Below, piece after piece: positions 2,222 through 45,000 of a DNA stretch of 64,000 nt (position 1 is the first letter of the stretch; every line of letters starts with the position of its first letter). This stretch comes from an uncultured Clostridia bacterium. GTDB taxonomy: Bacteria > Bacillota > Clostridia > HGM11514. The translations under genes were made by a program, and so were the position numbers. Below the pieces are notes generated by a model, which saw only the letters and a list, made by a program, of their open reading frames with translations, was not told where the DNA came from and ran no database searches. The stretch spans positions 1,591 through 65,590 of the forward strand of contig CAKSKB010000008.1 of NCBI GenBank assembly GCA_934464705.1. The letters are read 5' to 3'.

Positions 2222-2300
2222 GATTGTTTTATCCTTTCTCTATGGGTTTCTGATAAATATAGGGCTGTCTTGCGACAGCCCCATATATTACAGAGTCTAA

Positions 2301-4937: not shown

Positions 4938-4999
4938 AATTTGTCCTCTTCTTTCTTAAAATTTTTATACTTTAATTCTTTTCAAAAATTAAACAAAAA

Positions 5000-5557
5000 T
5001 CAATAAGCCTTACCAAAGTTATCGATAACAATGTTGTAGTCAAGCAAGTTAACTTTACCGTCACCGTTAAGATCAGCTTTCTCGTTAAATCCTGCTGCAC
5101 CGGAAGCTGTACCAAATGCATCTATAATAATGTTATAGTCAAGCAAGTTAACTTTTCCGTCCCCATTAGCATCGCCGGCACCGCCTGCTGCAAACGAAAG
5201 AGCTGCGGACTTGGGAGCTGCAACGCCCGTACCGCCTACATACACGGTGAACTTTTCGCCGAACTTTGCTGTGTCAACACCGAGCTTGAATGTTGCCTTA
5301 CCGCCTGTTGCCTTAGCCTGGTCAACATATGCAATATCGTTTTCGCTTACGCTTGCAAGGTTAACACCGTTTTTAACAACAAGGATAGTAACATACTGCT
5401 CTGCTGCAGGGTCTGTAACAGTAACTTCTACATCAGCTGTTTTTGCTTCTTTATCAGCTGTAACCGCAGGTGCCGCAATCTCAGCCGCAAAAGCGGACAC
5501 GGACAGAAGCATTACCAAAACCAGCCCGAAGCAAATTCCCCTAACCAAATTTTTCAT
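5000..5557 (-). CDS. Small secreted type-I dockerin protein: signal peptide, a roughly 110-aa domain of unknown function, and a dockerin. No catalytic module
   Basis: Signal peptide MKNLVRGICFGLVLVMLLSVSAFA. Two calcium-binding F-hand dockerin repeats DANGDGKVNLLDYNIIIDAFG and DLNGDGKVNLLDYNIVIDNFG at the C-terminus. Confidence 0.8.
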   Translation of the reverse strand: MKNLVRGICFGLVLVMLLSVSAFAAEIAAPAVTADKEAKTADVEVTVTDPAAEQYVTILVVKNGVNLASVSENDIAYVDQAKATGGKATFKLGVDTAKFGEKFTVYVGGTGVAAPKSAALSFAAGGAGDANGDGKVNLLDYNIIIDAFGTASGAAGFNEKADLNGDGKVNLLDYNIVIDNFGKAY

Positions 5558-28028: not shown

Positions 28029-28994
28029 GTGGCAAAATTGGCAAAAGAGGTAACAAATGAACTTACATACATACCTAAAAAGCAGAGTGCGGCACTTATT
28101 TTCAAAAAGAACTGGATGCTCCTTGCACTGTGCGCACCAATGCTTGTTTATCTTGCAATTTTCCGTTACGGACCGATGTTCGGTATCATACTGGCTTTTA
28201 AGTCGTATGACTACCAGGGAGGTATCATCGGCAGTGACTGGACGGGTCTTTACAACTTTGAGTTCTTCTTTCAGTCGGACAGTTTTACGATAGTTGTAAG
28301 AAACGCCCTTCTTTACAACATAGTAATGATATTCCTGGGTCTTATTGCGTCAATCATGCTCGCACTGCTGCTCTTTGAGCTTTCGGGCAAGATTGCTATC
28401 AGGGTTTATCAGACGCTTATGTTCATACCGCATCTTCTCTCGTGGGTTGTTGTTGCGTACATGGTATACGCATTCTTAAGCCCTACACACGGTATGCTGG
28501 TAAGCATCTATAATTACTTCGGCCTTACATATACCGACTGGTATTCAGAGCCTATGAGATGGATATTCATTCTGCCTATCGCCTCCATATGGAAAGGCTG
28601 CGGTATGAGTGCGCTTATCTATTATTCGTCACTCCTCGGTATTGACGCAGAATACTTTGAAGCCGCATCGCTCGAAGGTGCAACAAGGCTTCAGATTGCA
28701 AAATATATAACACTTCCGTTCCTGTATCCTACCGTTACAATCCTTACGATTATGGCTATCGGTAAGATATTCAATGCAGATTTCGGTCTGTTCTATCAGC
28801 TGCCGAAAGGCTCTCCGCTGATCAGAAGCACTACGGATGTTATCGAAACCTACACATACCGTGCATTCTATGAAGAAAGCAATATCGGTCAGTCATCTGC
28901 AGTAGGTCTGGTACAGTCCATCGTGGGCTTGGTGCTCGTTACGCTTACAAATGCCGTTGTTAAGTGGATCGACCCCGAAAGAGCATTGTATTAA
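28029..28994 (+). CDS. Carbohydrate ABC transporter permease, LplB/YtcP-like (MalF-type)
   Basis: Six TM segments and the EAA loop region (EAASLEGATRLQIAKYITLP). The N-terminus (IFKKNWMLLALCAPMLVYLAIFRYGPMFGIILAFKSY) is typical of LplB-family polysaccharide-uptake permeases. Confidence 0.85.
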   Translation: MAKLAKEVTNELTYIPKKQSAALIFKKNWMLLALCAPMLVYLAIFRYGPMFGIILAFKSYDYQGGIIGSDWTGLYNFEFFFQSDSFTIVVRNALLYNIVMIFLGLIASIMLALLLFELSGKIAIRVYQTLMFIPHLLSWVVVAYMVYAFLSPTHGMLVSIYNYFGLTYTDWYSEPMRWIFILPIASIWKGCGMSALIYYSSLLGIDAEYFEAASLEGATRLQIAKYITLPFLYPTVTILTIMAIGKIFNADFGLFYQLPKGSPLIRSTTDVIETYTYRAFYEESNIGQSSAVGLVQSIVGLVLVTLTNAVVKWIDPERALY

Positions 28995-29013
28995 GAAAGG
29001 ACGGTGTTTGTAA

Positions 29014-29913
29014 ATGGCAGTCGTTAAAAGAAAAAGCGAAACTATCGCAAAGTTTTTTATACATATTTTCTTCTGTTTGCTTTCGGTAACATTTATTATA
29101 CCGATCTGGTCTATTGTATCCATCTCGTTCATGAGCGAGGAGGAAATCATTCAGACAGGTTACGCAATGATTCCGAAAGAGCTGTGCCTTACTGCTTATA
29201 AGTATATTTTCAGCAGTACCGGTGCTATTATCAATGCTTACAAGGCAACAATAATTACATCGATTATGCAGTGCGTACTCTTCCTCATCGTAGGTTCAAT
29301 GTGCGCATACGCTATATCCCGTTCGGACTTCAAGTTCAGAGGACCTATCACATTCTTCATGTTCTTCACAATGCTGTTCGGCGGCGGTATGATTCCTTCT
29401 TACATACTTATCGCAAAGGTTATGAACCTTACCGATACTTATGCAGCGCTGGTTTTCCCGTCTATCGGTAATGTATGGTCGATATTTATTATCCGAACAT
29501 TCTTCCAGCAGCTGCCGGGCGCTATTATTGAGTCCGCAACTATTGACGGCGCAAGCGAATGGACGATTTTTACAAAGATTATTCTTCCTCTTTCAACACC
29601 TGCGCTGGCAACAATGGGTCTTCTTGAATTCCTCGGTGCGTGGAATGCATGGATGCCCTCAATGCTTTACCTTACCAGTAACGGTAAAGACAAAAGAACT
29701 CTGCAGTACCTGCTTCAGACAATGCTTCGTAACATCGATGAATTGAAGAAGAATCAGGAACAGACGGGTATGATTCTCGAAACAGCGAACACGCCTACAG
29801 AGAGTGCCCGTATGGCTATGGCGGTTGTTGCCGTAGGTCCTATCCTCCTTATATTCCCGTTCTTCCAGAAGTATTTCGTACAGGGTCTTACGGTTGGTTC
29901 CGTAAAGGGTTGA
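29014..29913 (+). CDS. Carbohydrate ABC transporter permease, LplC-like (MalG-type)
   Basis: TM topology and EAA motif ESATIDGASEWTIFTKIILPLSTPALATMG. Confidence 0.85.
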   Translation: MAVVKRKSETIAKFFIHIFFCLLSVTFIIPIWSIVSISFMSEEEIIQTGYAMIPKELCLTAYKYIFSSTGAIINAYKATIITSIMQCVLFLIVGSMCAYAISRSDFKFRGPITFFMFFTMLFGGGMIPSYILIAKVMNLTDTYAALVFPSIGNVWSIFIIRTFFQQLPGAIIESATIDGASEWTIFTKIILPLSTPALATMGLLEFLGAWNAWMPSMLYLTSNGKDKRTLQYLLQTMLRNIDELKKNQEQTGMILETANTPTESARMAMAVVAVGPILLIFPFFQKYFVQGLTVGSVKG

Positions 29914-29984: not shown

Positions 29985-30254
29985 ATGGGCAAAGATATAA
30001 GAAGGTACAACATGCGGCGGAACAGAGCAATTAAAATCACTGCTGCGATTGTGTTTTGGTTTGCGGTATTTTTTGCAATTAACCTCATAACAAAAAGAAA
30101 TCAGGCAAACGGAGCGGCTGCAGATATGACGGAAACTTACATAGTTCTTGCAGTGTCAGCAATTATAGCACTGCTCGGGTTTGTTGCCACTTTATATGCA
30201 ATATTTTATCTTGAAAGATTTTCTATACAAAACAAAAAGAAAAAACGAAGATAA
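29985..30254 (+). CDS. Small membrane protein, hypothetical (2 TM)
   Basis: 89 aa, two hydrophobic helices, lysine-rich C-terminus. No recognisable family. Confidence 0.4.
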   Translation: MGKDIRRYNMRRNRAIKITAAIVFWFAVFFAINLITKRNQANGAAADMTETYIVLAVSAIIALLGFVATLYAIFYLERFSIQNKKKKRR

Positions 30255-30271: not shown

Positions 30272-31318
30272 ATGAACAGCTTCAAAGCATTTTTGAAACG
30301 CAAAAATATAGAATTTTCGTTAAAACGCTACGGAATTGACGCTCTCGGGGCAATGGCGCAGGGGCTTTTCGCATCCCTTCTCATAGGAACGATACTCTCA
30401 ACCTTAGGCGAACAGATTGGATGGAACGCACTTGTTGAGGTCGGGAATGTTGCAAAAACAGTTCAGGGGCCGGCAATGGCAATAGCGATAGGATATGCGC
30501 TTAAATGTCCTCCGCTGGTGCTCTTCTCGCTTGCCGCAGTAGGTGAAACCGCAAACTATATGGGCGGTGCAGGCGGTGCTTTTGCGGTTTTGGTTATTAC
30601 GATTGTTGCGGCTGAGCTTGGAAAAGCAGTCAGCAAAGAAACAAAGCTTGACATACTTGTTACTCCTATTGTTACAATCGGCTCGGGCGCACTGCTTTCA
30701 ATGACTATTGCATCGTATATCGGCGCAGGTGCGTCGCTTGTAGGAACATTCATCATGTGGGCAACGGAGCTTCAGCCCTTCTGGATGGGCATAATCGTTT
30801 CGGTTGTTGTCGGGATTGCTCTGACGCTTCCGATTTCAAGCGCAGCCATATGCGCAGCACTCTCGCTTACCGGACTCGCCGGCGGCGCGGCACTGGCAGG
30901 CTGCTGCGCACAGATGATAGGCTTTGCCGTAATGAGCTTCAGGGAAAACAAATGGGGCGGACTCCTTGCGCAGGGTCTCGGCACAAGTATGCTGCAGATG
31001 GGCAATATTGTTAAGAATCCGAGAATATGGATTCCGCCGACACTCGCATCCGCAATATGCGGGCCGATAGCAACCTGTATATTCCGCCTTCGTATGGACG
31101 GCGCTCCGGTATCATCAGGCATGGGCACATGCGGTCTTGTAGGGCAAATCGGCGTTTATACCGGCTGGATTGAAAAGGGAATAGACATCACAGCATTTAA
31201 CTGGATAGGTTTAATTGCAATTTCATTTGTTCTTCCGGCGGTTCTCACATGGATTTTCGGGCTTTTCTTCCGAAAAATCGGCTGGATTAAAGAAAACGAC
31301 TTAAAACTGGATATATAA
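30272..31318 (+). CDS. Polytopic membrane protein, PTS-EIIC-like (PTS_EIIC_2-type). Family assignment is tentative
   Basis: 348 aa, about 10 TM segments. The N-terminal FLKRKNIEFSLKRYGIDALGAMAQGLFASLLIGTIL resembles stand-alone EIIC-like permeases. No EIIA/EIIB partner in the window. Confidence 0.45.
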   Translation: MNSFKAFLKRKNIEFSLKRYGIDALGAMAQGLFASLLIGTILSTLGEQIGWNALVEVGNVAKTVQGPAMAIAIGYALKCPPLVLFSLAAVGETANYMGGAGGAFAVLVITIVAAELGKAVSKETKLDILVTPIVTIGSGALLSMTIASYIGAGASLVGTFIMWATELQPFWMGIIVSVVVGIALTLPISSAAICAALSLTGLAGGAALAGCCAQMIGFAVMSFRENKWGGLLAQGLGTSMLQMGNIVKNPRIWIPPTLASAICGPIATCIFRLRMDGAPVSSGMGTCGLVGQIGVYTGWIEKGIDITAFNWIGLIAISFVLPAVLTWIFGLFFRKIGWIKENDLKLDI

Positions 31319-31410: not shown

Positions 31411-31474
31411 ACTTGTATGTTTAGCGGCGTTCCTTGCAAATGATATTTACGGCTTTATAAAATGGCGAAGAATA

Positions 31475-31502
31475 GAAAAAAAGGCAGGCGTTTGCGCCTG
31501 CC
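31475..31502 (-). terminator. Rho-independent terminator after the mreB-like gene
   Basis: GGCAGGCG-tttg-CGCCTGCC hairpin with a 7-8 nt U-tract on the minus strand (plus-strand aaaaaaa at 31475-31482). Confidence 0.65.
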
Positions 31503-31522
31503 CGGACTGCCTGAAAAACACA

Positions 31523-32509
31523 TCATACACTCTTTTCCGCTGCCAATCCCGCTCCGATTGCCACGCAGGAAGCTGCATCCTTTGCGACATATGCGGAAAT
31601 GCCGGTTGATTTCCCGATAAGCTCTGAGATACCGCTCAAAAGACTCCCCCCTCCGGTCATAAGAATACCGTGTGCATTAATATCCGAAATAAGTTCGGGA
31701 GGAGTGCTTTCAAGCACACACTTAACCGAATCGACAATTCTTTCCGCACAGGGCATCAGCGCCTGCCTTACATCTTTAGAAGTTATAACAAAATTTTCGG
31801 GCAAACCGCTAAGCAGCCCAAGACCCGAAACCCTCATTTCGCCTTCTGCGTTTTCATCGACACTGCCGATTTTGATTTTTATATCCTCAGCGGTTCTGCT
31901 TCCGATTGTGATATTGTAGTTTTTGCGCACATAGCGCCTGATTGCTTCGTCAAAACTGTCACCGGCACAGAAAACCGTGCTGTTCACAACAATTCCGCCG
32001 AGAGAAATAACAGCAATATCACTGCTTCCGCCGCCTATATCGATAACCATTCTTCCGCACGGCTTGTTTATGTCAATTCCTGCGCCGATTGCCGCCGCAA
32101 CGGGTTCCTTAATCAGCTTTACACGCCTCGCCCCGGCAGCTGACGCAGCGTCTGACGCCGCTCTTTTTTCAACCTCGGACGCAAGGCACGGAACGCATAT
32201 AACCACCGACGGTTTCATGATATGTCCGCCCTCGGCTTTTCTTATATAATGCTTCAGCATACGCTCTGTCATTGAAAAATCGGAAATAACGCCGCTTCTG
32301 AGCGGCCTTACGGCAGTGATATTCTCGGGCGTTCTCCCGAGCATGCCCCTTGCCTCTCCGCCGAACGCAACGGTCTTTCCCGAAGCGTCGACCGCTATAA
32401 CAGACGGCTCCCTGATAACAATGCCTTTCCCCGAAACATACACCAAAACAGAAGCCGTTCCAAGGTCAATCCCGATATTTTTGGAAATAATATTAGCCAA
32501 CACGCTCAC
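31523..32509 (-). CDS. MreB/Mbl-family actin-like protein (orphan paralog, not in an mreBCD context)
   Basis: Actin-fold phosphate and adenosine motifs IGIDLGTASVLVYV, DIGGGSSDIAVIS, ILMTGGGSLL. 328 aa. Confidence 0.85.
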   Translation of the reverse strand: MSVLANIISKNIGIDLGTASVLVYVSGKGIVIREPSVIAVDASGKTVAFGGEARGMLGRTPENITAVRPLRSGVISDFSMTERMLKHYIRKAEGGHIMKPSVVICVPCLASEVEKRAASDAASAAGARRVKLIKEPVAAAIGAGIDINKPCGRMVIDIGGGSSDIAVISLGGIVVNSTVFCAGDSFDEAIRRYVRKNYNITIGSRTAEDIKIKIGSVDENAEGEMRVSGLGLLSGLPENFVITSKDVRQALMPCAERIVDSVKCVLESTPPELISDINAHGILMTGGGSLLSGISELIGKSTGISAYVAKDAASCVAIGAGLAAEKSV

Positions 32510-32544
32510 CTCTCGACTGACATTATTTCCCGAAAACTCCTGTT

Positions 32545-32763
32545 TTATTCTATCGAAAAATCATCCGGCGTAAAATTTTTCTCCTTGGGTTTTCTCATGC
32601 GTTTGGGCTGTATTCTAAGATAATTAAGGTCGAATTTCGGGCATGCGTGCTCCGGCTGAACAATCCCCTCAAATTCACACAGAATATCATCGGTCACCCG
32701 TATAAGCGTTGCATGATTGCAAAGCGCACAAATGCTGCGGTATTCATCACTCACCGCAATCAC
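32545..32763 (-). CDS. Small four-cysteine protein, hypothetical, immediately upstream of and co-oriented with the mreB-like gene
   Basis: 72 aa with Cys-X2-Cys ... Cys ... Cys (ICALCNH...ILCEF...HACPKF), suggesting a zinc-ribbon-like fold. The gap to the mreB-like start is 35 nt. Confidence 0.35.
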   Translation of the reverse strand: MIAVSDEYRSICALCNHATLIRVTDDILCEFEGIVQPEHACPKFDLNYLRIQPKRMRKPKEKNFTPDDFSIE

Positions 32764-32857
32764 TCCTTATAAATTTCATGTACATATATTTTATCACATT
32801 TCGGGCACAATTTCAAGTGCTTTGCATATATTGATAGTAACAGAAAGGCAGTGAGTT

Positions 32858-33166
32858 ATGATGAACAGCATTTTTCAGATATTGCTTCTGCTGTTTGCGC
32901 TGTACGGAATCGCAAACATTCTGTGGGAGCTGAACGAAAGCTTTTTCAAACAGAAAAATCAGAATACCGTTTCATATTTTGCGTTTATGCCGCTTGGGGA
33001 CGAGGACAGCATAGAGCACGAAATCCGCAGCTGCATAGACTACGCCGAGGAAATGAACTGTGAACCGATAATTATCGAAGGAGATAACTGGAGCAGCGAA
33101 AAAAAGCGCATAGCGGAAATCATAGCAAACGAAAGCGATATTAAAATCGTACATAAGAAAACATAA
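32858..33166 (+). CDS. Hypothetical protein with an N-terminal TM helix
   Basis: 102 aa ORF bounded by an RBS-like GGCAGTGAG upstream and a bidirectional terminator downstream. No recognisable motifs. Confidence 0.35.
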   Translation: MMNSIFQILLLLFALYGIANILWELNESFFKQKNQNTVSYFAFMPLGDEDSIEHEIRSCIDYAEEMNCEPIIIEGDNWSSEKKRIAEIIANESDIKIVHKKT

Positions 33167-33167
33167 T

Positions 33168-33200
33168 AAAATCGGTGCGAAAATAATTCGCACCGATTTT
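33168..33200. terminator. Bidirectional rho-independent terminator between convergent genes
   Basis: aatcggtgcgaa-aataa-ttcgcaccgatt perfect 12-bp stem flanked by A/T runs on both sides. Confidence 0.7.
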
Positions 33201-33204
33201 AAAA

Positions 33205-35412
33205 TTAATCTAATTGAAGAGGCACATCTCTAAAAAAACATTTCACTTCTTCACACTCACTGATATGCCTTTCAAAATTCTCTACATTGTAATCATTAAT
33301 CAAATCTGAGGTTTCAACTATACTCTTTTGCCATTCTGTTTCCATGTTGTCAAAAGCAGATTCAAATGCAGCTTTGGTATCATCCCAATATTTGTTTATA
33401 GCATTATGATACTTATCCAAGGCATTTTGGTCATTAAAGGCAGCTCTCAATTTTTTCGGAACCTTGTTTTTCCAATTTCCTGTAAGTACACCAAAAACAC
33501 CAAGTGCAGCAATAACTGCAGCTGCTATTCCCAAAGTTATAGGTCCTCCTATTGCGGAAACCGCAGAAATTGCAGTAGCTGTACCTCCGCCTATAGATAC
33601 GCCTAATGCCGAAAGAAGGCTGACTCCTTTAGCAACAATTATATATCCTCCCAAATTGCCGAGCGACGACGCCCATAAAGCAAGTCCGCCAAGGGTTGCT
33701 GCACCGGTAAGCCCGGATGCAAATGCTCTTTTGGCATCAAAAGTATTGGCATAACACTTGCCGGAAACTTTAGCAGCCTTACATTCATTTTCAAAATCGG
33801 CTATAACCTCTTCTATTTTTTTGTTTAAACCGACGGTACGGGTATTCAAAACAGCTTCCATTGAATTGCTTAATTCAGAACTTATATATGAACCTAAAAG
33901 CTGCATATCATCTTTTTTGTTCTTATACTTTTTTTGCTCTATGGTTTTTAAAATGAAATCGTCGGATAAAACCCTATCGTATTTATCATCAAAATGTTTT
34001 AGTGATTTTTGCCTTGCATCTTCAATATATGAAATAATACCGCTTTTCTTTTCATCTAATTTAGCTTTTCTCAACGGTTCATTTTTCAATGCTTCGGCAA
34101 CATATTCTTTGCAGTTTTCGCGTTCATTAATAAGCTTGTTGTATCTTTCAATCACCTCATCAATTGAAATAATATTTTCGTTGCAAAAATCCAACACGGA
34201 TTTTACTGCATTATCAGCTATTAATCCGGGAATCCGTTCTATAGTTTTAACAAATTCATTTTCGAAATCACTTCGTATACTTTCAATATCAATAGTATAT
34301 GAAAAGAATCTTTTTCTCATATCGGATTCATCGTAATCAAGACCGGTTACATTTCCCCTGTTTTTCCAAAAATCGTTGGGCAAAGTACTGCAGAACCGTT
34401 CGCAGCCATCATCAAGAATTTCCTCAACAGTATCTTTATTTCCTCTGTTTACGGCATGAGCGTGAGTTGCAACTACAAACAAGTTCGCAAACTTATCAAC
34501 ATTATTTTCCGGATTTTCAATTGCGGCAAGCATATTTAAAGCACTTTTCAGATTTATGCAATCTTCAGAATTAAAAAATCCCATAGCTTGAGACAAATAT
34601 ATAAGAACATCAGCCTTATTTTTTGCCTTTTCCGCAGTAATATTATCGCTTTCCACACCACCTGTGAAGCCGGGCACATCGACTAAATCACAATTTTTAA
34701 GTACGGCGCTGTCAACATAGATAAGGGCTGCACCGATATCGTCAGAACTTGCTTTATAACCTTCACCTTTCCTTGTTCCGTAAGACGAAAGCATTTCGGC
34801 ATTTCCGCCTGCAAGCCGCCATTTTTTGTAGTACTCCTCACATGTCAGTTTTGAATCATCAAAACATTCATCTTCGGTATCTCTTTTCATAATGGTAAGC
34901 TCATCCGAAATAAATTCCGGTCTGTCATCAATATGCTTAACATATACGGTTACCGATGTTGTAGGAGTCCAGTCGGTCGGCATTTTTTCTTTTCCTATTA
35001 GTGCGTTTATCATAGTACTTTTACCGGCATCGGATCTTCCCAAAAATACAACCTTTGGTTTTTTAGCCGCAAACTGCATTATTTCTTTGAGCTTTAACGC
35101 ATAGGTTTGATCAAATCCAACATGATTTTTTAAATAAGAATCAATGTAATTATCCAATATATTTTTTTTGTACCTTACCTCGCTCCAGGCATCTTCAACC
35201 TGCAACACCTTCGGCATAGGTTTTTCAAAAGAAACCAGCTGATCAAGCGTCATTCCTGTGCGAATTGCAATTTTTTGCAATACATCCAATGAAATTTGCT
35301 CCGGATTCTTTTCCAATCTTGAGATTGCATCCTGACGCATTTCCAAAAGAGCGGCAAATTCAGCCTGAGTCATTTTCAAACTATTTTCCCGAAAATTTTT
35401 CAAATCAAACAT
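33205..35412 (-). CDS. Fusion protein: N-terminal XRE-family HTH + dynamin-like / TRAFAC-class GTPase + helical stalk + C-terminal glycine-rich membrane paddle
   Basis: HTH_XRE: MTQAEFAALLEMRQDAISRLEKNPEQISLDVLQKIAIRTGMTLDQLV. GTPase: G1 GRSDAGKST, G2 threonine region TDWTPTTS, G3 DVPGFTGG, G4 NKAD. Long predicted coiled-coil middle region. An 80-aa Gly/Ala-rich hydrophobic segment (GLTGAATLGGLALWASSLGNLGGYIIVAKGVSLLSALGVSIGGGTATAISAVSAIGGPITLGIAAAVIAALGVFGVLTG), then a roughly 95-aa helical tail. RBS GGAGG 8 nt upstream of the ATG. Confidence 0.7.
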   Translation of the reverse strand: MFDLKNFRENSLKMTQAEFAALLEMRQDAISRLEKNPEQISLDVLQKIAIRTGMTLDQLVSFEKPMPKVLQVEDAWSEVRYKKNILDNYIDSYLKNHVGFDQTYALKLKEIMQFAAKKPKVVFLGRSDAGKSTMINALIGKEKMPTDWTPTTSVTVYVKHIDDRPEFISDELTIMKRDTEDECFDDSKLTCEEYYKKWRLAGGNAEMLSSYGTRKGEGYKASSDDIGAALIYVDSAVLKNCDLVDVPGFTGGVESDNITAEKAKNKADVLIYLSQAMGFFNSEDCINLKSALNMLAAIENPENNVDKFANLFVVATHAHAVNRGNKDTVEEILDDGCERFCSTLPNDFWKNRGNVTGLDYDESDMRKRFFSYTIDIESIRSDFENEFVKTIERIPGLIADNAVKSVLDFCNENIISIDEVIERYNKLINERENCKEYVAEALKNEPLRKAKLDEKKSGIISYIEDARQKSLKHFDDKYDRVLSDDFILKTIEQKKYKNKKDDMQLLGSYISSELSNSMEAVLNTRTVGLNKKIEEVIADFENECKAAKVSGKCYANTFDAKRAFASGLTGAATLGGLALWASSLGNLGGYIIVAKGVSLLSALGVSIGGGTATAISAVSAIGGPITLGIAAAVIAALGVFGVLTGNWKNKVPKKLRAAFNDQNALDKYHNAINKYWDDTKAAFESAFDNMETEWQKSIVETSDLINDYNVENFERHISECEEVKCFFRDVPLQLD

Positions 35413-35500
35413 ATTTTTTCCTCCGTGCTTTTTATTTTAACAATATATTATCACATAATTTTCATTTTGTCAAGTGGTGTTTTGCATTTTTTTATATTAT

Positions 35501-35518
35501 TTATGCATAATTGCATAA
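35501..35518. promoter_or_regulatory. Inverted repeat TTATGCA-N4-TGCATAA in the promoter region of the HTH-GTPase gene; candidate operator
   Basis: ttatgcat aat tgcataa at 35501-35518, about 90 nt upstream of the HTH-GTPase start codon, between the upstream terminator and the RBS. Confidence 0.3.
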
Positions 35519-35531
35519 ATAATATAAAAAA

Positions 35532-35557
35532 ATGGGTTCGCCGCATTGCGAACCCAT
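35532..35557 (-). terminator. Rho-independent terminator after the giant SLH protein gene
   Basis: atgggttcgc-cgcatt-gcgaacccat hairpin followed on the minus strand by TTTTTTTATATTATTT. It separates the giant gene from the HTH-GTPase gene. Confidence 0.65.
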
Positions 35558-35565
35558 TATATTTT

Positions 35566-38500
35566 TTACCTTTCCAAAAGCCTTTGAAGTATAGCTGCTG
35601 CTTCCGCGCGGGTTGCGGTTGCTTTGGGGTCAAGAGTGGTTTCGGTTCTGCCGACCATTATTTTTGAAGCCGCAGTCCACTTAAGCGCCGGGACAGCATA
35701 CTCCGAAATGTCGGCAAAATCCGCATACGAGGATATATCAAAGCTCTCGCCTGCGCTCACGCCAATGCCCTTAAAGCCTGCATATCTGTACATTATTGCC
35801 GCAATCTGCTCTCTTGTTATCAAATCATCGGGAGCAAACTCGGTTTCCGAATAGCCGCTTACTATGCCGTTTTCTGCTGCCCATGCAACAGCGTCTTTAT
35901 AGTATGCACCATCCAAAACATCCTCAAAACCGGAAGACCGCGAGGCTTTCGGCTCGCCTTCTGCCCTATGAAGAACCGTTACAAGCATAGCGCGTGTAAG
36001 ATTCTGATTTGGTCCGAAAAGCGTATCGGTTATACCCTTAAAGAGGTTGTTGTCATAAACATACGCTACATTATCGTAGAACCAGTCAGACTCAATGACA
36101 TCCGTAAACGGAAGTCTTGATTTTTCGGCAAATACCGCCTTAACCTCAATATCCCTGTCAATAGATTTTATAGTGTAAGGCGAGGTTCTGCCGACCGACA
36201 TACCGTTTATCAGTATATCGGCAATAACGAAGCCTTCGTCGGGGGTTGCGGTAACAGTGACGGAAGTTCCGCTTGCGGCTCTTTCGCTCGAAACTGTCAC
36301 TTTACCGTGTTCACTCTCAAGAACCGTAACCTTATAGTATCTCACGCTGCCGCTGCCCGAGGACGAGCCGCCGCTCGGTCTGTCGCCCTTTTTGAAGAGC
36401 GCAATTGCTTCGGTCAGATCCGAAACGGAATCGGTGTAATCCTTATCGGTGGATGAAGAATTGTTAAGCACCGCTTTTGCCTTTTCGATTGCATCCGAAA
36501 GCGCATTCTTTCTTCTTTCGGAAGCGTTCGGCTCAGACGCCAGCACACCTTCCGCCTCTGCTATTTTTGCTTCAAGGTCATCCCTTGTATTGGTTCCGAC
36601 CTCAATTACCACATTATCCGAAACACCTGCGGAAATTATCTGACCGTCCTCGGTTTCAACATCCGCCGTTGAAATTTTTGCTTTAACCGCCGTTTCGCCC
36701 GGGATAAGCGCAGTCAGTTTACCGCCTTCAAACGATACGATGTTTTTTGCGTACATGATGTTCCACTCAACATCGTCTTCATCTGCGATATAGGTTGAAC
36801 CGTTTGCCGACAAAAGCGCAGTAAGGTCAATGCTCTGACCGTTTCTTATGCTTATTTTCTTGATTCCGTTTGAATCGGCAGCAACGGATTTTCCGCCGTT
36901 TTGTATTTCAATTCCGGAAATTGCGGCACTGCCGCCCCTTATAACGGTTACGACAAGTTCGGTTTCGTTTCCGGCACGGTCGGCTGCCTTCAGCCTGTGA
37001 ACAACGCTCATTTTGCCCTCGGGAAGGGTTTTTGAGATTGTAAATCCGCCGTTATTTGAAATATTTATTCCGTCGGAGGAGCCGTCAACCGTGAGAACTG
37101 CCGAATTTTCGGTCATACCCTCAATTGTATATGCACCGGATTCATCAGCCGTTATTACATTTGCACCTATCGCAACGGCTGCTGACGGGTCTTCGATGCT
37201 TGCGGCGGTGTTTCTTGTAAGCGACAAAACAGGAAGCGATGTGTCAACCGTAAAGCCAAGCTGTGAATTTTCAATATCGGATGCATCAGCGCCTGTTATG
37301 TGGTCTTTGTTGTCGGCATATGCGGTGAAGTCGATTATGTAATCTCCGTCCTCGAGATTGTCAAGCACAAACTTCCAGTCGGTTTTGAACTTATTGTCGC
37401 TGTACGCTTTAAGCCCGTTTACGGAAAGTTCCACAAATGCAGGCTCGCTGAATGTGTATTCAACTGTCACGCTGTCCTGATTGATAAATTCCTTCGTTGT
37501 ATCAAAGTTGGTTTTAACCGACAACAGCTTAGGTGTTTTCGGATTCGGGAGCGTAAGAATATTCGAATCGGCATAGCCGTCACCGTAATAATAAAGCGTT
37601 TTGCTTTCATCATTCGGGTCAGCCGTTTCTCTAAGCGTTTTTATACGCACAAAATAGTTTTTGCCGACCTCAAGATTTGCTTCCTTGCCAAACACAAAAT
37701 TGCTGCCCATCGCAAACTGACCGTACGCATTATCAAGAATTTTGCCGTCCTCGGAGATGATTTCGGCAAGATAATGTGTGTAATCCGCATTTTCGGCATC
37801 GGTTGCCGATACGAATATTCCGCCGTTTCCGCCGTAAGCGATATGAACTGACGAAACGCTCTTTGGAAGCTTCGGATTTTTGAATGTTATCGGCGTTTTA
37901 TCTATCGCAAGGCTTATGCCGTCGGTTGCGGAAACGGTTGCAACCATATAATATGTGCCCGACGGGAACGAATCCGGAAGGGTAATATTCTCCGTGCCCG
38001 ATTTTATATCCGCACCGTCTTTATGAAGAATGTTTATGCCGAGTGCGTCACCGCTGTTTTTGGACGCTTTGATTTTATCAAGAACATCCGAGTCCTCAGT
38101 AAGATAAACATCAACGCAGCCCTTTTCGTGAGACTTACCGGTCACGGTAAGGTTTGCTGCCATGTCAAACGATTCGCTTGAATCATGCGATGCGGAAACG
38201 CCCGTAAGCTCCGCAATATCGTCAACCGCATTCATAGAGAATGTCTTTATCTCAATATTTTCGGTTGTGTATTTAACCTTCCATTCTCCGTTCGCGATTG
38301 CGTTTTTGTCGGTAACGGTTACATAGATGAAGTTTCCGTCATCACGGTTCTGAACCACCATGTTTCCGCCGCCGTTTCCGTCATCGGGAGTTGTTTCGAT
38401 TACAATTCCGTTTTTAGGACTTGTAACGGTTATCTCTCCCGCCTTGGGAGTTCCTGCGCCGGTGTACGGAATCTCAAGCAGGAGTGCGTCCTGATCGCCT

Positions 38501-41500
38501 GCACCGTTGGTTTTTACAATAGCCTCTTTTGCGTTTTCGGGCGCTGCAAGACTCACAACGCTGAGCGCACGGATATTTGTTCCGTAAAGCGCGGTTCCTT
38601 CGTCGGCGCTGCCAAGGCTGTCGCCGCCGCGGCTCGGTGCGCTGAGGTCGATATTCTTACCGAACGAAACCTTTTCGCCCCAGTAATAAATAACACCGAA
38701 TTTAATTCCTATTATTTTAATATTTGCGCCTATAAACTCATGGGACGCCGCCGCTTCAACCCCGGCAAGCTCCTTGCCGCCGACAAACGGTATGCTGTCG
38801 GGTATGCACAGCGAAGCATAGATATAGCCGTAGAAATAGTCGTCCGCTATGTTTACGGTTATGCCGCCCTTTATCAGCCCGTCAATAATATTTATGCTGC
38901 CGTAAAGGTTCAGTTCCCACGGTTCAATCCACCGCGCCTGTATGCCCGCCTGCAGATTTAGGATTCCCTTTGCATATTTTATATTCATATCACCCGTAAG
39001 CGACAGCCCTTCAAGGCTGATTCTGGCGTTGAAATCTCCCGTAAGCACCCCGATTGCCTCCAGCCTTGTGAAAAGAAGAAGCGTTACCGGAGGAAGTTTA
39101 TCAAAACTGCCGCCTATGGAATCCGCCAAATCGTTGATTCCGCCGCCGAGACCCGTCATGAAAAGAACAGGCGGCGCAAGAGGAATTCTCAGACCGTCAC
39201 GGATATAAAACTCAATCTTATCGGGAAGAATCTTATCCTTGCCCTTAAGTTTAACCTGCTTGAATGCAAGAACACCTTCGCACTCGATTACCTTAATGTT
39301 AAGACCCGCATTTATTTCATACACATTCTCAATTGTGTTGATTGTAACCGATGCATATATTCCCGGGGCGTTTGAAACGAGAGAACCGAGAAGGTCTTTC
39401 GGAAGACCGAGAGAGAACTTTGCGTCAATGCCTATATATCCCTTATCGTCTTCAACCTCAACCTTGCCGTCCTTAACTTCTCCCCGTTCGCCAAAGAGGA
39501 TATTATTGATTTCCGCCGAAAGCTCGCCTTCGGAAAGCTTGGTATCCTTAGAAATCTTGGTCTTTTCGTCAGATGTCGGCTGCGGAGTTTCGTCAAACAT
39601 CTGATTGAAGGTATCGGAATAATCGTCCGGGTCGCTGTCATCAAAGAGGTTGTTCATCTCCATAGAGATGTCCTCCTGGTCGGCAGTCAGATCCCTCTGC
39701 GGTTCATCTTTCTTCTTGGGCGCCTTTATCGGAAGGCTTATCGAGCCGCCGAAGCCTATGCCGTATGTAACAACACCGTCACCGTCCTCATACCAGCTTG
39801 AACTCATCTCGCCGAATTTCAGGTCGATAAGAAAACCGCCTATCATCTGAATCATTGTTGCCGCACCGTCGAGAGAAAGCGTAAGAGTCGCCGGTTCAAG
39901 CGCGGACGCATCCTGGAATCTCTCGGTATCAAGAGTTGTCGCAACGCCCTTGTTTACGGTAAAGCTCCACTTGCTGCGCCACACATTTATGGAGTTTACA
40001 ACCTTCAAAAGACCGTCGCCCTTAACTGTGTAAGCGCCGTTTTTCTCGTAAATTTCAAGCGGTTTATCGCCCTCGTATGAGAGCATATTGTTTATAATTA
40101 TATCGCCGTCGCCAAATTCCGCCTGCCAGTATCTTTCGCCGCTGTCACGCTTCATTTCGCGGATACCGCCCCGGATATTGAGTATAACTTCGGCGTCTGC
40201 AATTGCGTTTTCATCTTTACCGAAATCAAATTTGAGCTTTTCGCTGCGTATTTCGCCTGTTTTTTCAATTTCGCCATTATAGAATTTTTTATATTCACCC
40301 TCGTTTGCAAAAGTGAAAAACTCATAATCGGTAGCATTGTTCTTTGTTATTCTGACAAGCGCAATCGTTCCGTATGATTTCAGCTTATACTTTTCATCCG
40401 CCGAAACGGTAAGCGCTGCCTTGGCGGTTATGGATTTACCGAACTCCGCAATAAGGTCCTTATCGGAAAATGTGAACACAAGGCTGTACTCTCCGACCTC
40501 AAGTTCTTCTTTGGTGGTAAAGCTAAGATTCTGATATTCCTCATCCATGAACGCAATGTTCTTTTTCTCGATAAGCACGCTGTGGCCGCTCGTTTTGTGT
40601 TTAAGCCTTAAATCCCAGCCCTGATTGCCGGAAAGCGCCTTAAAAGGCTTCATTGAACCCGAAACCGTAATCGCCTTTTCGCCGCCGGTCCATACAATTT
40701 CGGGGCTGATCTTGCTCATCTGAACTTCTGCGGTCTTTCCGCTGACGGAGCGGAGAATAACGCTGTCCTCACCTGCGGTTTCGACCGTTTTCTGCGTTCC
40801 GTCGGAAAGATTTGCCGTTGCGGTGAGCGACGCATAAACCGTACCGGCGGTGAGGTCCGTCTGCGGTTTTGCGCGAAGCCTGAATTGCCTTGTTACAACC
40901 TCTTTGCCGATTTCATTTATAGTTACAATTGAGCCGATGCCGCCGACAATCTCGAAAAACTTTTCGTCAACGGTCAGATTAAGCTGTGCAGAGGTGAGCG
41001 GAACGGCAGCATCCCCCGAATTATCAATTTCAACAGTAACATCAAATTCGCCGCCGTTCTTGTAAGCTTTTCCGCTTTCGTCAAGTTCCACCCTGCCGCA
41101 AACGATGTTGAGCCCTATATCGCTTTCATCATCGTTTGTGAAATTTCCGACGCCGTAAAGCGATTCCGCAGAAAAGCTTCCGCCGTTCGGAACGGCCTTT
41201 TTCTCCCAGTATACCGCAACTGCGCTGTCGGGAGTTTTATACGCATTGGAATAATTGGTAAAATCACAGTATTCGTCGGGCTTATAGTCAAACCTTGTAT
41301 TTGCAAGATTCGCCCAGTGACCGACTATTACGGAGGACGGTTCAATTCCGCCGCTCCAGCCCTTGGTTATAACATACGCCAGTTTTGAAGGGTTGGACAG
41401 AGAATCCACACACCGAAGCTGCTGCGGAACCTCATCTCCGGAAAACTTTTTCTCCGTCATGGTCGGAACAATATCCGTATCTGCCACCACATACGGTGCG

Positions 41501-42045
41501 TCGGTATCGTTTCCGAGCGCGGTATCGAGCATAAGACGGACGCTTATATCGGAAGTCTTGCCGCTTGCGTTTGAAACCTCAAACGAAAAGCCGGCATTTC
41601 CGAGAGTATCGGTGTTTTCGTCCGTGCCGAGCGCAACCTTCATTTTTACGGTTACGCCGTTAATAGTCCACGGAACGGTTAAAAGTCTGCCCTCCTCGGA
41701 AACAACGGGTGTTCCGAGGGTTGAACTCAGACCGAAAAATCCGTAATCCTGCCCGAAAACATAATCCTTATCGTCTATACGGACGGAAACGAAAGAAGTT
41801 CCGTTGCTGCGCGCCTTATCCTCGCTGTAAAGCAAAGGAATATTATTGTCAAGCGACTTTTTGGGGTTACCCTCGGCGGTTTCGATTGCAAAACCGCCGG
41901 TATCCGCATGGAAGGTATATGTAAGATACCCGTTTGAAATACTGTAAATATTCTGTTCCTCAGCACCGGCAATACACGGCGTTAAAACACCGATAAGCAT
42001 CGAAAGCACAAGCGCATAAGAAATCAGTTTCTTAAAAATATTCAT
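35566..42045 (-). CDS. Giant (2159 aa) S-layer-homology-anchored cell-surface protein with Ig-like domains
   Basis: Signal peptide MNIFKKLISYALVLSMLIGVLTPCIAGA. An acidic linker (DDSDPDDYSDTFNQMFDETPQPTSDEK). Big_2-like domain (ISIRNGQSIDLTALLSANGSTYIADEDDVEWNI...). Coiled-coil (LEAKIAEAEGVLASEPNASERRKNALSDAIEKAKAVL). Three C-terminal SLH repeats (FTDVIESDWFYDNVAYVYDNNLFKG...; FEDVLDGAYYKDAVAWAAENGIVSG...; FADISEYAVPALKWTAASKIMVG...). Confidence 0.8.
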   Translation of the reverse strand: MNIFKKLISYALVLSMLIGVLTPCIAGAEEQNIYSISNGYLTYTFHADTGGFAIETAEGNPKKSLDNNIPLLYSEDKARSNGTSFVSVRIDDKDYVFGQDYGFFGLSSTLGTPVVSEEGRLLTVPWTINGVTVKMKVALGTDENTDTLGNAGFSFEVSNASGKTSDISVRLMLDTALGNDTDAPYVVADTDIVPTMTEKKFSGDEVPQQLRCVDSLSNPSKLAYVITKGWSGGIEPSSVIVGHWANLANTRFDYKPDEYCDFTNYSNAYKTPDSAVAVYWEKKAVPNGGSFSAESLYGVGNFTNDDESDIGLNIVCGRVELDESGKAYKNGGEFDVTVEIDNSGDAAVPLTSAQLNLTVDEKFFEIVGGIGSIVTINEIGKEVVTRQFRLRAKPQTDLTAGTVYASLTATANLSDGTQKTVETAGEDSVILRSVSGKTAEVQMSKISPEIVWTGGEKAITVSGSMKPFKALSGNQGWDLRLKHKTSGHSVLIEKKNIAFMDEEYQNLSFTTKEELEVGEYSLVFTFSDKDLIAEFGKSITAKAALTVSADEKYKLKSYGTIALVRITKNNATDYEFFTFANEGEYKKFYNGEIEKTGEIRSEKLKFDFGKDENAIADAEVILNIRGGIREMKRDSGERYWQAEFGDGDIIINNMLSYEGDKPLEIYEKNGAYTVKGDGLLKVVNSINVWRSKWSFTVNKGVATTLDTERFQDASALEPATLTLSLDGAATMIQMIGGFLIDLKFGEMSSSWYEDGDGVVTYGIGFGGSISLPIKAPKKKDEPQRDLTADQEDISMEMNNLFDDSDPDDYSDTFNQMFDETPQPTSDEKTKISKDTKLSEGELSAEINNILFGERGEVKDGKVEVEDDKGYIGIDAKFSLGLPKDLLGSLVSNAPGIYASVTINTIENVYEINAGLNIKVIECEGVLAFKQVKLKGKDKILPDKIEFYIRDGLRIPLAPPVLFMTGLGGGINDLADSIGGSFDKLPPVTLLLFTRLEAIGVLTGDFNARISLEGLSLTGDMNIKYAKGILNLQAGIQARWIEPWELNLYGSINIIDGLIKGGITVNIADDYFYGYIYASLCIPDSIPFVGGKELAGVEAAASHEFIGANIKIIGIKFGVIYYWGEKVSFGKNIDLSAPSRGGDSLGSADEGTALYGTNIRALSVVSLAAPENAKEAIVKTNGAGDQDALLLEIPYTGAGTPKAGEITVTSPKNGIVIETTPDDGNGGGNMVVQNRDDGNFIYVTVTDKNAIANGEWKVKYTTENIEIKTFSMNAVDDIAELTGVSASHDSSESFDMAANLTVTGKSHEKGCVDVYLTEDSDVLDKIKASKNSGDALGINILHKDGADIKSGTENITLPDSFPSGTYYMVATVSATDGISLAIDKTPITFKNPKLPKSVSSVHIAYGGNGGIFVSATDAENADYTHYLAEIISEDGKILDNAYGQFAMGSNFVFGKEANLEVGKNYFVRIKTLRETADPNDESKTLYYYGDGYADSNILTLPNPKTPKLLSVKTNFDTTKEFINQDSVTVEYTFSEPAFVELSVNGLKAYSDNKFKTDWKFVLDNLEDGDYIIDFTAYADNKDHITGADASDIENSQLGFTVDTSLPVLSLTRNTAASIEDPSAAVAIGANVITADESGAYTIEGMTENSAVLTVDGSSDGINISNNGGFTISKTLPEGKMSVVHRLKAADRAGNETELVVTVIRGGSAAISGIEIQNGGKSVAADSNGIKKISIRNGQSIDLTALLSANGSTYIADEDDVEWNIMYAKNIVSFEGGKLTALIPGETAVKAKISTADVETEDGQIISAGVSDNVVIEVGTNTRDDLEAKIAEAEGVLASEPNASERRKNALSDAIEKAKAVLNNSSSTDKDYTDSVSDLTEAIALFKKGDRPSGGSSSGSGSVRYYKVTVLESEHGKVTVSSERAASGTSVTVTATPDEGFVIADILINGMSVGRTSPYTIKSIDRDIEVKAVFAEKSRLPFTDVIESDWFYDNVAYVYDNNLFKGITDTLFGPNQNLTRAMLVTVLHRAEGEPKASRSSGFEDVLDGAYYKDAVAWAAENGIVSGYSETEFAPDDLITREQIAAIMYRYAGFKGIGVSAGESFDISSYADFADISEYAVPALKWTAASKIMVGRTETTLDPKATATRAEAAAILQRLLER

Positions 42046-42059
42046 ATCCGTCCTCCCCG

Positions 42060-45000
42060 TTAGTTAAGTACATAAACCTGAAGCGTAATATAATCACGCT
42101 TGTCAGTCTGGATAAAGAAGGTGTACCAGCCTGTTTCAAGACCGTCTATTTCAAATTCACCGTTTTGATTTTTTGAAATCATAGTACCCGAACGCTTCAT
42201 CTGCCCCATTGTTTTTACGCCCTTCTGATAGCGGACATAAGCTGTTGATGTCGGTGAGAAGTTCTTAAGCGCAATATTTATGCTGTCGCCGTCAACCTCG
42301 CTTCTGCCGGCAGCGTCCGGAAGTTTGCCGTTAACCGTTGCCGCAACATCGTAGAGCCCCACAAGGCGAACCGTTCTTTTAACCCTTGTCACATTATGTG
42401 CGTTATCCGCCACCTCGTAAGTTATAACATACGAAATGCTTCTGTCAAACTTGTTGTTTTCTATGTTATCGGGGTCAAATCCTCCCCAATCCGTTACCGC
42501 AACGGCGTTTGTAAGGTCATATCCTCCGCCGAACTTATCGTATGCGCGGAATGCCTCGCCCGGCTTTGTGAGCATATCCTTGCTGTAAGGCTCGCCCATT
42601 CCGGGGTTTTCATAGAACACGAGTTCTTCTTTGCCGAGAAGGTCAATCACCGGAGGCTCCTTGTCGATAACCTCAATATCCACCGCATACGAATCGGAAA
42701 GCTGATTGTTTTTCTTCATATCAAATATATACATTCCGTTGTCGGTGTAGGTTTTCTCGTTGGTTTTTGAGTAATCTCCGCTGCCGCCTGCGGGGCGTGT
42801 GTCGGAGTCGGTTGTAACGGTAACCGTAACATCATTGCCGGTTACGGGATTTGCTCCGTAGACATCTCCTGCCTTTGTAGAAACCCTGAAACCTGCCTCG
42901 TCCCCGGGCTTGTGGCTTCCGCTGTGGGGTTTGGTTACCCATGCGCCGTTTTCAAGCACATCATAGTCATAACTCCATCTTACCTCGGTAATTTTCGGAG
43001 CAACCGTATCGATTTCGCTGATCTTAACCGTGAGATAGGAACATATGCCCTCATCGTCAAAAACCTTGAAAGTGTAAACTCCGTTTTTGTAGAATGTGAA
43101 TTCCGCAATGTCGGCCTTATACTGAATGCCGCCGTAAAGCACATTTACATCGGCAAGGCTGCGTCTTTTATCGATTTCGTTCCCTGAAGCGTCAAGCGCC
43201 TTTTTGAACTTGATTTTCACTTCGGTTTTGTTCTCGTTCGGGAAAAGTTCCGCCGAGAGCGCCGGGGGAGTTTTATCGATATTCGACACCGTAACAACAT
43301 CGGTAACCTCATTTCCGCCCTCATCCGCGAATTTAATTCCGAGGGAGCCGCTTTCCGTAAAGGTTATTGTTGATGTTCCGTAATCAACCGAATACTGAGA
43401 GCGGTCGGTTATTCCGCTCACCGGTTCAACCTCGGTTATTTTCACATTCGGTTTTGAGAATTTAAGCGTTACGCTAACGCTCTTGGATGTAATCGTGTCG
43501 GGGTCAACACTGTAAACCGCGTCGATAATTTCGGGAGCCTCCGTATCTATATTGGAAATATGAAAGTTTTTCGTGGTTTTGTTTCCGACCTTATCGTAAA
43601 GCGTTATGCCATACGAACCGTTTTCCGGAAGTTCGCCGGTAAATTCGGTACCGTTTTCGGTAAGCGGAATATCCTTTCCGCCTGCCGCTTTCAGCGTAAC
43701 CGAACCCACGCCGCTGCCCTCATCGGTTGCGGTGATTGTTATTCCGACAGGCTTATTTGTTGTAAGCGTTGTTGAAAGCTGATATGAAATTTCGCCCGGA
43801 ATTATATCGAAGTTTACCGCCGAAATTTCTTTTGAAGCAGTATATCCGTACATATCCTTCATAGTAAATGTAAATGAAGGCTCATAGCTGTCCAAAATCT
43901 TTTCGGTGTTTCCGCCGTTATTGGTTATGCGCAGACCTCGCTCCTCTGCCCTGTCGGTAAGATTCACAATCGCCTTTACGCGTTTATAATAGGTGTTTTC
44001 CGCATTAATATCGGAAACCTCCTGCCAGTCTCCCTTTTCATCCTCGTAAAGGTAAGAAACTGTGTAGTCCTTGTCGGCGCCTTCCTCAATCGGAGTTTTG
44101 TTTATGCATTTGACCATCTTGTAGTCATCTCCGTCAAAAAGCTCGCACTCCGTTCCGAAGCCTTCAAGTCTCTGAACCGCTCCCCAAGAAACCGCACCTG
44201 TCTGCGAACTGCACCTAAGAGCGGTTATCCTTGAATTATCGGTAAAGGTGTATATAACCTTTTTAACACCGTACTCGTCACCGTCACTGATGAAATCGAT
44301 CTTAACCGGGTAACCGCCGGAGCTCATATCATAGCTCCACGGATTTTCGTCATAATCGATTAAGTTGCCGTCATCGTCGTGCATCGGGATATTAAGTTCA
44401 ACGGAGGTATCGGTCGCCTCGTCATAATATCCTCCGGCGTTAATCGTTTCTATACCGGATTCCGGATCCTGAATGGTAACCACGAAAGTTACATCGCCGA
44501 TTGTCGGATTTACGCCGATTATATCCTCATATTCATCGAAAACAAATATTTCGGGGTTGATTTCAACCTTTACAATCGGCGGAGTGTTGTCGATATTGTC
44601 CGCAATAAGGTCGCATATGCTCCATGTGTCTTTATCCGCATTTCCTGCCTCGAAACTGTAAACGCTGACGGCTCTTTCCATAATATTAAGGTATTTACCG
44701 ATGTCAAGAATGAGCGGATGTACGGAATAAACAAGCTTTGTATATCCGCCGCCGGCTTCATCATACTCTGATTGTTCCTCATTAAGGAACAACCCCTGAT
44801 TGTTTGCCGCCTGATCGTCATAAGGCATAACTCTCAAAGCGCTTTCCGAAGGCGTGATAACCAGCGTTACCTCGCCGCCCTCGGGTGACAGCATTTTATC
44901 ATCCGGAACATCAGAACCGTTAAACTGCCTTACGATATTTGCTTTTCCCGTAATGCCGAACTCAACATCGTTTATATCGATATTAACCGCCTTCGCTCTG

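Follow-up and report, generated by a model that had tools for sequence, protein, structure and literature searches.

This analysis concerns a two-gene operon in a stretch of 64,000 nucleotides (nt) from an uncultured Clostridia bacterium (assembly GCA_934464705.1, contig CAKSKB010000008.1, positions 1,591 to 65,590); the whole stretch is referred to below as the window. The operon lies on the minus strand and consists, in the direction of transcription, of a sigma-A-type promoter, a gene for a small protein with four cysteines, which we call Cys4, a gene for a protein of the MreB family, and an intrinsic terminator (Table 1). The two genes form a unit that is conserved throughout a small lineage of uncultured Clostridia. 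What is new here, in our opinion, is on the one hand a dedicated and conserved Cys4 partner gene of an MreB paralog, and on the other hand the Cys4 family itself, which is uncurated and linked to sporulation genes.

A preliminary description of this DNA, made from its letters without database searches, had pointed out the MreB gene, the small reading frame 35 nt before it and a strong terminator behind it. The distance of 35 nt is right for the longest open reading frames (ORFs), which run over 31523..32509 (328 amino acids, aa) for MreB and over 32545..32763 (72 aa, with cysteines at 12, 15, 29 and 41) for the small protein, both on the minus strand; counted to GTG 32503 it becomes 41 nt. This GTG is the likely start of MreB because of the position of the Shine-Dalgarno sequence and because P0003, a 99% identical protein, has a length of 326 aa. 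For the small gene we favour GTG 32754, which gives 69 aa, because the Shine-Dalgarno sequence AAGGAG at 32768..32763 is placed 8 nt upstream of it and the gene calls in relatives are also of 69 aa. Terminator prediction returned nothing between the two genes, while the terminator behind MreB is indeed a GC-rich hairpin followed by a run of T. The GC content is 49% in the operon and 46% in the window, and an Rfam scan of the whole window returned zero RNA families.

Table 1. Features of the Cys4-MreB operon and its surroundings (positions in the window; aa, amino acids; HTH, helix-turn-helix)
Feature	Position	Strand	Remarks
Intrinsic terminator of the operon	31472..31503	-	Hairpin 31503..31482 with a 9-bp stem and 7 GC pairs, then a T-run
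MreB gene without C-terminal tail	31523..32503	-	326 aa from GTG 32503
Intercistronic spacer	32504..32544	-	Holds the MreB Shine-Dalgarno sequence GAGAGG
Cys4 small protein gene	32545..32754	-	69 aa from GTG 32754; longest ORF to 32763
Sigma-A-type promoter of the operon	32788..32816	-	TTGAAA, 17-nt spacer, TAAAAT, with TG extension; 10/12 matches
Conserved intergenic element GCATATATTG	32824..32833	+	Identical in 5/5 lineages compared
Single-pass membrane protein gene, 102 aa, divergent	32858..33166	+	Probable third member of the module
Strain-variable 2.4-kb insertion with the HTH-dynamin gene (33205..35412)	33172..35555	-	Outside the module

The statement that the operon is a conserved unit is based on the comparison of five sub-lineages: the window with P0003, L001 with P0010, L025 with P0009, L013 and L014 with P0014, and L026 with P0018. 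A Cys4 gene, with a product 62-94% identical to that of the window, is found upstream of the MreB gene in all five, with a spacer of 41-48 nt. Conservation of the small ORF before MreB homologs was one of the checks proposed in the preliminary description, and it came out in favour of the gene. The pair is retained down to 63% identity in MreB and 62% in the small protein, and the outer flanks differ in every sub-lineage; the upstream neighbour, for instance, is hydF in L013 and a CN_hydrolase/GDPD gene in L026. The promoter is kept in all four lineages whose upstream sequence is at hand. A TTGAAw-17-TAtAAT promoter is kept upstream of the Cys4 gene in L002, L003 and L015, and a weaker one is seen in L013.

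The small ORF represents a genuine gene, since it is under purifying selection and belongs to a family with invariant cysteines. The ratio of nonsynonymous to synonymous substitution rates (dN/dS) against the orthologs in L015, L001 and L013 is 0.04-0.16, with synonymous sites near saturation. A word-indexed protein search with the ORF returned two close homologs only. A HMMER profile search, run exhaustively over 1.84 billion representative sequences (E<=1e-3), gave 69 matches, of which 68 are credible clusters at 50% identity; nearly all members are 62-87 aa long and a few are extended at the N-terminus. The remaining candidate, P0161, is a protein of 558 aa with nine repeats of the type 'MCGWCNDEAW...'; its match (E=9e-16) is with the N-terminal half of the Cys4 profile, and we excluded it as probably spurious or repeat-driven. 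Another scan, of a genome collection with a three-sequence family alignment, found one contig, JAXGBA010000078, from the metagenome-assembled genome 'Clostridia bacterium CON6 bin1'. With the hidden Markov model of this family, which is spread through Clostridia, the window protein itself obtains 96.5 bits (E=3.5e-28).

All four cysteines are invariant in the 71 aligned family members, and the spacing C-x2-C-x13-C-x11-C is found in 64 of them. A glycine and a valine after the third cysteine (G30 and V32 in the window protein) are nearly invariant in the same alignment. A basic linker and an acidic-hydrophobic C-terminal tail are common to the family. In the window protein the cysteine domain is acidic (net charge -5) and the linker has a charge of +6; the tail reads DFSIE, and 51/71 members carry a similar motif. 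Neither Pfam nor NCBIfam holds a model that covers the family, a literature search turned up no paper on the family or on its pairing with MreB, and PADLOC returned nothing for any of the three proteins MreB, Cys4 and the 102-aa product. The family is under-represented in protein databases because gene callers often miss the Cys4 gene: it is uncalled in seven of nine contigs of the same species (L004-L010) and called in L011 and L012, as well as in L013 and L026, while in L025 an antisense ORF of 127 aa is annotated in its place.

The preliminary description had suggested that the small protein is possibly a zinc ribbon. The four cysteines with a Cys-X2-Cys pair are as described. The classical ribbon, however, is not what we find: the N-terminal ribbon of TFIIB (PDB 1pft) has two CxxC knuckles, whereas the Cys4 site has one such knuckle and two isolated cysteines. 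The AlphaFold2 model, built from an alignment of 42 sequences, reaches a mean predicted local distance difference test (pLDDT) score of 79.5 and displays three strands and a C-terminal helix, all of them short. A Foldseek search of the PDB with this model gave nothing significant, the best hit, with E=3.4, being the zinc ribbon of TFIIB, and a profile search against the PDB gave TFIIB with E=0.034. Sequence and structure searches gave no significant match that would place the protein among zinc ribbons or among [4Fe-4S] proteins of the type of high-potential iron-sulfur proteins (HiPIPs), the cysteine spacing of which is similar to that of Cys4. From the invariant cysteines we infer a metal-binding site in the core of the protein, predicted to hold either zinc or an iron-sulfur cluster.

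The window MreB matches the Pfam model MreB_Mbl (PF06723) over residues 10-326 with 404.9 bits (cutoff 27, E=2.6e-121), and its residues 5-322 align with the structures of Geobacillus MreB (7zpt and 8azg, E=2e-94) and of Thermotoga MreB (1jce). In the structure alignment the nucleotide-binding motifs DLGT, EPVAAA, DIGGG and TGGG are intact. By these comparisons the window MreB is a full-length protein with the fold of an actin.

As the preliminary description held, this MreB is an orphan. There is neither mreC nor mreD in the 64-kb window, and mreCD are absent directly downstream of MreB in all five sub-lineages, that is, here and in the four related ones. What follows MreB is a PTS_EIIC_2 gene on the opposite strand in the window, a nicotinamide mononucleotide (NMN) transporter gene in L001, a gene for a CwlD-like amidase together with radA in L013, and other, unrelated genes in L025 and L026. 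The phylogeny of MreB, also proposed as a check, was reconstructed by neighbour joining from 112 homologs, which are the 120 best matches minus eight anomalous long forms. Ten MreBs including that of the window form a monophyletic divergent clade in this tree. Identity is 54-76% between the sub-lineages of the clade and 53-62% between the clade and other clostridial MreBs, which have a mean identity of 69% among themselves; judged by these values, the clade is evolving faster than the other clostridial MreBs. All clade members are 324-326 aa long and are without the C-terminal tail of 15-25 residues found in other MreBs.

Two further features that could have set this group apart did not hold. 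A deletion in the membrane-binding loop specific to the clade was rejected, as the loop of other clostridial MreBs is of equal length. Database entries of 394-473 aa named 'MreB' were checked for a fusion to the small protein; their extra length is due to internal duplications, which are artefacts of assembly or gene calling (P0005, P0011, P0012, P0013, P0016, P0017 and P0022, from ENA assemblies).

It may be argued that this is simply the only housekeeping MreB of the organism, relocated away from mreCD, and that the small ORF next to it is unrelated. The protein passes the cutoffs of two MreB subfamily models (415.3 bits against 293 for PRK13927 and 388.5 against 365.75 for TIGR00904), its promoter is of the sigma-A type, and neither the 64-kb window nor the related contigs contain a second MreB. 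The low identity to other clostridial MreBs, the faster divergence of the clade, the missing C-terminal tail and the fact that mreCD never adjoin the gene in five lineages nevertheless speak against such an origin, which we consider quite unlikely.

Mbl and MreBH of B. subtilis are, like the window MreB, MreB-family actins encoded away from mreCD. The window protein differs from both. It scores 339.1 bits with the MreBH model PRK13929, below the cutoff of 515, it has no C-terminal tail, and it is not found in the context of Mbl (spoIIID-mbl-flhOP): the genes downstream are not flagellar, and a tblastn search of the window, L013 and L015 with a B. subtilis SpoIIID sequence found no such gene. 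The same query did detect spoIIID in three control loci. Moreover, the MreB gene in the window clade is always preceded by a Cys4 gene, which is not so for Mbl and MreBH.

Orphan MreB paralogs are routine in gut Clostridia, and because they are so common the window MreB is in this respect a further member of a well-known kind. A metagenome scan with the window MreB recovered 80 loci (L027-L106) of one gut orphan-MreB orthogroup and zero members of the clade; these are the nearest metagenome MreBs, at 56-58% identity. The gene downstream of them is recD2 in 40 of the 80, flgF or flgG in 23 (an arrangement similar to that of Mbl) and a comF-like gene in 10. P0055, from human-gut samples, is yet another orphan MreB.

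The relatives of Cys4 that are at most 52% identical to the window protein are in a different company: none of them is near an MreB gene. At three independent loci (L016/17, L018/19 and L020/21) the Cys4 gene is placed 0-68 nt behind a ylbJ-like gene or overlaps its end; its coordinates are 6001..6204 in L016, 6001..6228 in L018 and 6001..6231 in L020. The ylbJ-like genes match TIGR02871 with E values from 1e-73 to 5e-21 and are divergent from a yabP-family gene and yqfD, after which come phoH, ybeY, era and recO. ylbJ, yqfC and yqfD belong to the core sporulation genes; they are spore-cortex genes expressed in the mother cell under sigma-E (PMC3533761). There is also a fourth context (L023/24), in which the Cys4 gene follows three small unannotated ORFs near spoVT and rpsF-ssb-rpsR. 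The ylbJ/yqfC/yqfD cluster adjoins most distant Cys4 relatives, whereas the window copy is near none of these genes. In the MreB-linked group itself, the CwlD-like amidase directly behind the MreB of L013 scores 219.6 bits against a cutoff of 221.55. These neighbourhoods with ylbJ, yabP-like genes and yqfD tie the family to sporulation and cortex genes, and the family is, in our opinion, a candidate for an unrecognised sporulation or spore-cortex gene of Clostridia.

On the other side of the promoter, a divergent gene encodes a protein of 102 aa that probably belongs to the module as its third member. It is found beside the pair in three of the five sub-lineages (in the window, L002, L003, L015 and L013/L014) with 61-98% identity. 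L026 does not have it, and the contig of L025 stops short of the expected position. The AlphaFold2 model of the protein (pLDDT 84) consists of an N-terminal transmembrane helix (2-36) and a small beta-alpha-beta-alpha-beta domain, for which the structural matches are generic ones only, of the Rossmann or universal stress protein type. The decamer GCATATATTG, in the divergent intergenic region of 94 nt, precedes this gene by 25-30 nt and is identical in the window, L002, L003, L013 and L015; it is perfectly kept across lineages whose proteins have diverged to about 62% identity. The element may serve as a -10 box for the 102-aa gene or as a site where a regulator binds. More speculatively, it may be likened to -10 boxes of the CATA type, which mother-cell sigma factors use.

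Beyond the 102-aa gene is the gene for a dynamin-like protein with a helix-turn-helix (HTH) domain, which the preliminary description had placed about 0.7 kb away. The gene is there as described, about 0.7 kb from the start of MreB, with HTH_3 and Dynamin_N domains: the protein consists of an N-terminal HTH of the Cro/C1 type, a dynamin GTPase and a glycine-rich hydrophobic C-terminal segment. The further suggestion, that MreB, the small protein and this GTPase make up one cytoskeletal or membrane-remodelling module, has proximity in this window on its side, as well as the fact that both families act at membranes. The co-occurrence of the GTPase gene with the operon, however, does not extend even to near-identical strains. 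In L004, L008 and L010 the whole inserted segment is replaced by about 36 nt, with flanks 99.2-99.7% identical. It is missing in the 97% relative L015, where a gene for an SLH protein of 2161 aa abuts the 102-aa gene, and it is absent also from the more distant L013. The GC content of the segment is 36%, and the dynamin gene is set apart from the operon by a hairpin and by the 102-aa gene, which has the opposite orientation. We therefore give hardly any credence to a three-part module; the idea of MreB plus dynamin is an artefact of a strain-specific insertion.

The dynamin gene is best read, by its composition and distribution, as strain-variable and horizontally acquired. Its product matches the Eleos defence dynamins in PADLOC (LeoBC at 6.3e-21 and LeoA at 6.9e-17, over the GTPase region only), along with several defence-associated HTH profiles. 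Eleos (LeoA/LeoBC), a dynamin-like anti-phage system, is a two- or three-gene operon, whereas the insertion in the window carries a single gene with an N-terminal HTH. By these matches, it is probably a defence gene and a candidate for a single-gene defence dynamin.

Beside the insertion there are tandem genes for giant surface proteins on the minus strand, 35566..42045 (2159 aa) and 42060..48986 (2308 aa); the first has SLH-like repeats at its end, judged by eye. Proteins with cohesin, Big_4/SLH and dockerin domains are encoded further upstream (including 989..5557). This set of surface protein genes suggests a cellulosome-like surface apparatus. On the other flank, the transporter genes noted in the preliminary description are ATP-binding cassette (ABC) permeases at 28029..29913 and a phosphotransferase system (PTS) gene, PTS_EIIC_2, at 30272..31318. 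The latter stands alone, without other PTS components nearby, and is preceded by a gene for an 89-aa protein with two transmembrane segments (29985..30254); both are on the plus strand. In L008 a product of 302 aa without a Pfam match takes the place of the EIIC gene. The window as a whole is core chromosome of a Clostridia bacterium, with priA, def, fmt, rsmB, rlmN, genes for a PP2C phosphatase and a PASTA kinase, rsgA, rpe, gmk, divIVA, sepF, ileS, lspA, miaB, ymcA, mutS, mutL and miaA.

What, then, does the Cys4 protein do next to MreB? We propose that it is a metal-dependent adaptor or regulator that acts on the co-transcribed MreB paralog, and would put the probability of this at roughly 40%. 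Cys4 would be a small adaptor or regulator carrying zinc or an iron-sulfur cluster, and its charged linker and DFSIE tail would dock it onto a partner in the synthesis of the envelope or of spore peptidoglycan. The partner in the window lineage would be the MreB paralog, the assembly or placement of which Cys4 would control, possibly at the membrane by way of the 102-aa protein. The pair may take part in wall synthesis linked to sporulation.

Such an arrangement would have company. YodL and YisK of B. subtilis act on MreB proteins, and the action of Cys4 on MreB would resemble theirs or that of RodZ or CbtA, in that a protein of small size is encoded alongside an MreB filament or acts upon it. 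The likeness stops there, as none of these proteins has the metal site of Cys4 or shares its sequence or fold. RodZ has an HTH and a transmembrane segment, and CbtA is a toxin of E. coli with 124 aa. Small-protein action on MreB has been described for CbtA (PMC5624674), and an inhibition of MreB linked to competence has been described as well (PMC4474612).

Several points weigh against a regulator of MreB. The interaction is deduced solely from the conservation of the operon. The pairing does not reach beyond one narrow lineage, and family members of at most 52% identity live in other contexts. L022 encodes a small protein 67% identical to that of the window; a terminator comes after its gene, and the remaining 110 nt hold no MreB. 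That no member of the Cys4 family was found within 4 kb of the 80 other orphan MreB genes (L027-L106) speaks for a specific pairing, but these are one orthogroup with 84-92% mutual identity and hence a narrow and weak control. Finally, the conserved promoter resembles one for sigma-A and does not look specific to sporulation.

Some of these points can be turned into an explanation of their own, namely that Cys4 belongs to the spore-cortex (YlbJ) pathway, as its relatives presumably do, and that a rearrangement in one lineage put its gene before an ordinary accessory MreB, the two being neighbours without a shared function and their co-transcription incidental. Distant Cys4 relatives, which are linked to ylbJ and yqfCD or to other genes and never to MreB, speak for such an explanation; the close homolog in L022 and the abundance of orphan MreB paralogs in Clostridia point the same way. 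It has to face the fact, however, that a spacer of 41-48 nt and a shared promoter were kept while the proteins diverged to about 62% and the flanks changed. Further, the MreB clade and the MreB-linked subgroup of Cys4 are equally distributed in the loci examined. We regard mere neighbourhood as somewhat less likely than a regulator of MreB, and it is the alternative that we take most seriously.

The proposal of an MreB regulator can also be extended. The whole Cys4 family might be a widely conserved and so far unrecognised clostridial factor of sporulation or the cell wall, a metal- or redox-sensing adaptor, possibly with an iron-sulfur cluster, that docks through the DFSIE motif onto organisers of peptidoglycan synthesis. 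In the lineage of the window it would have become a small regulator dedicated to an MreB paralog and co-transcribed with it, the first of its kind; with the 102-aa protein as membrane anchor, it would direct a specialised machine of wall synthesis for the spore cortex or for engulfment. This is a speculative picture, and we think it quite unlikely in this full form.

Accessory MreB paralogs are common in Firmicutes, but little is understood of what makes them specialised. If Cys4 is indeed a conserved metal-binding partner that is co-transcribed with such a paralog, it would offer a concrete handle on this question. As for the family at large, a role of Cys4 in sporulation can be put to the test in tractable species that carry the ylbJ-linked homologs.

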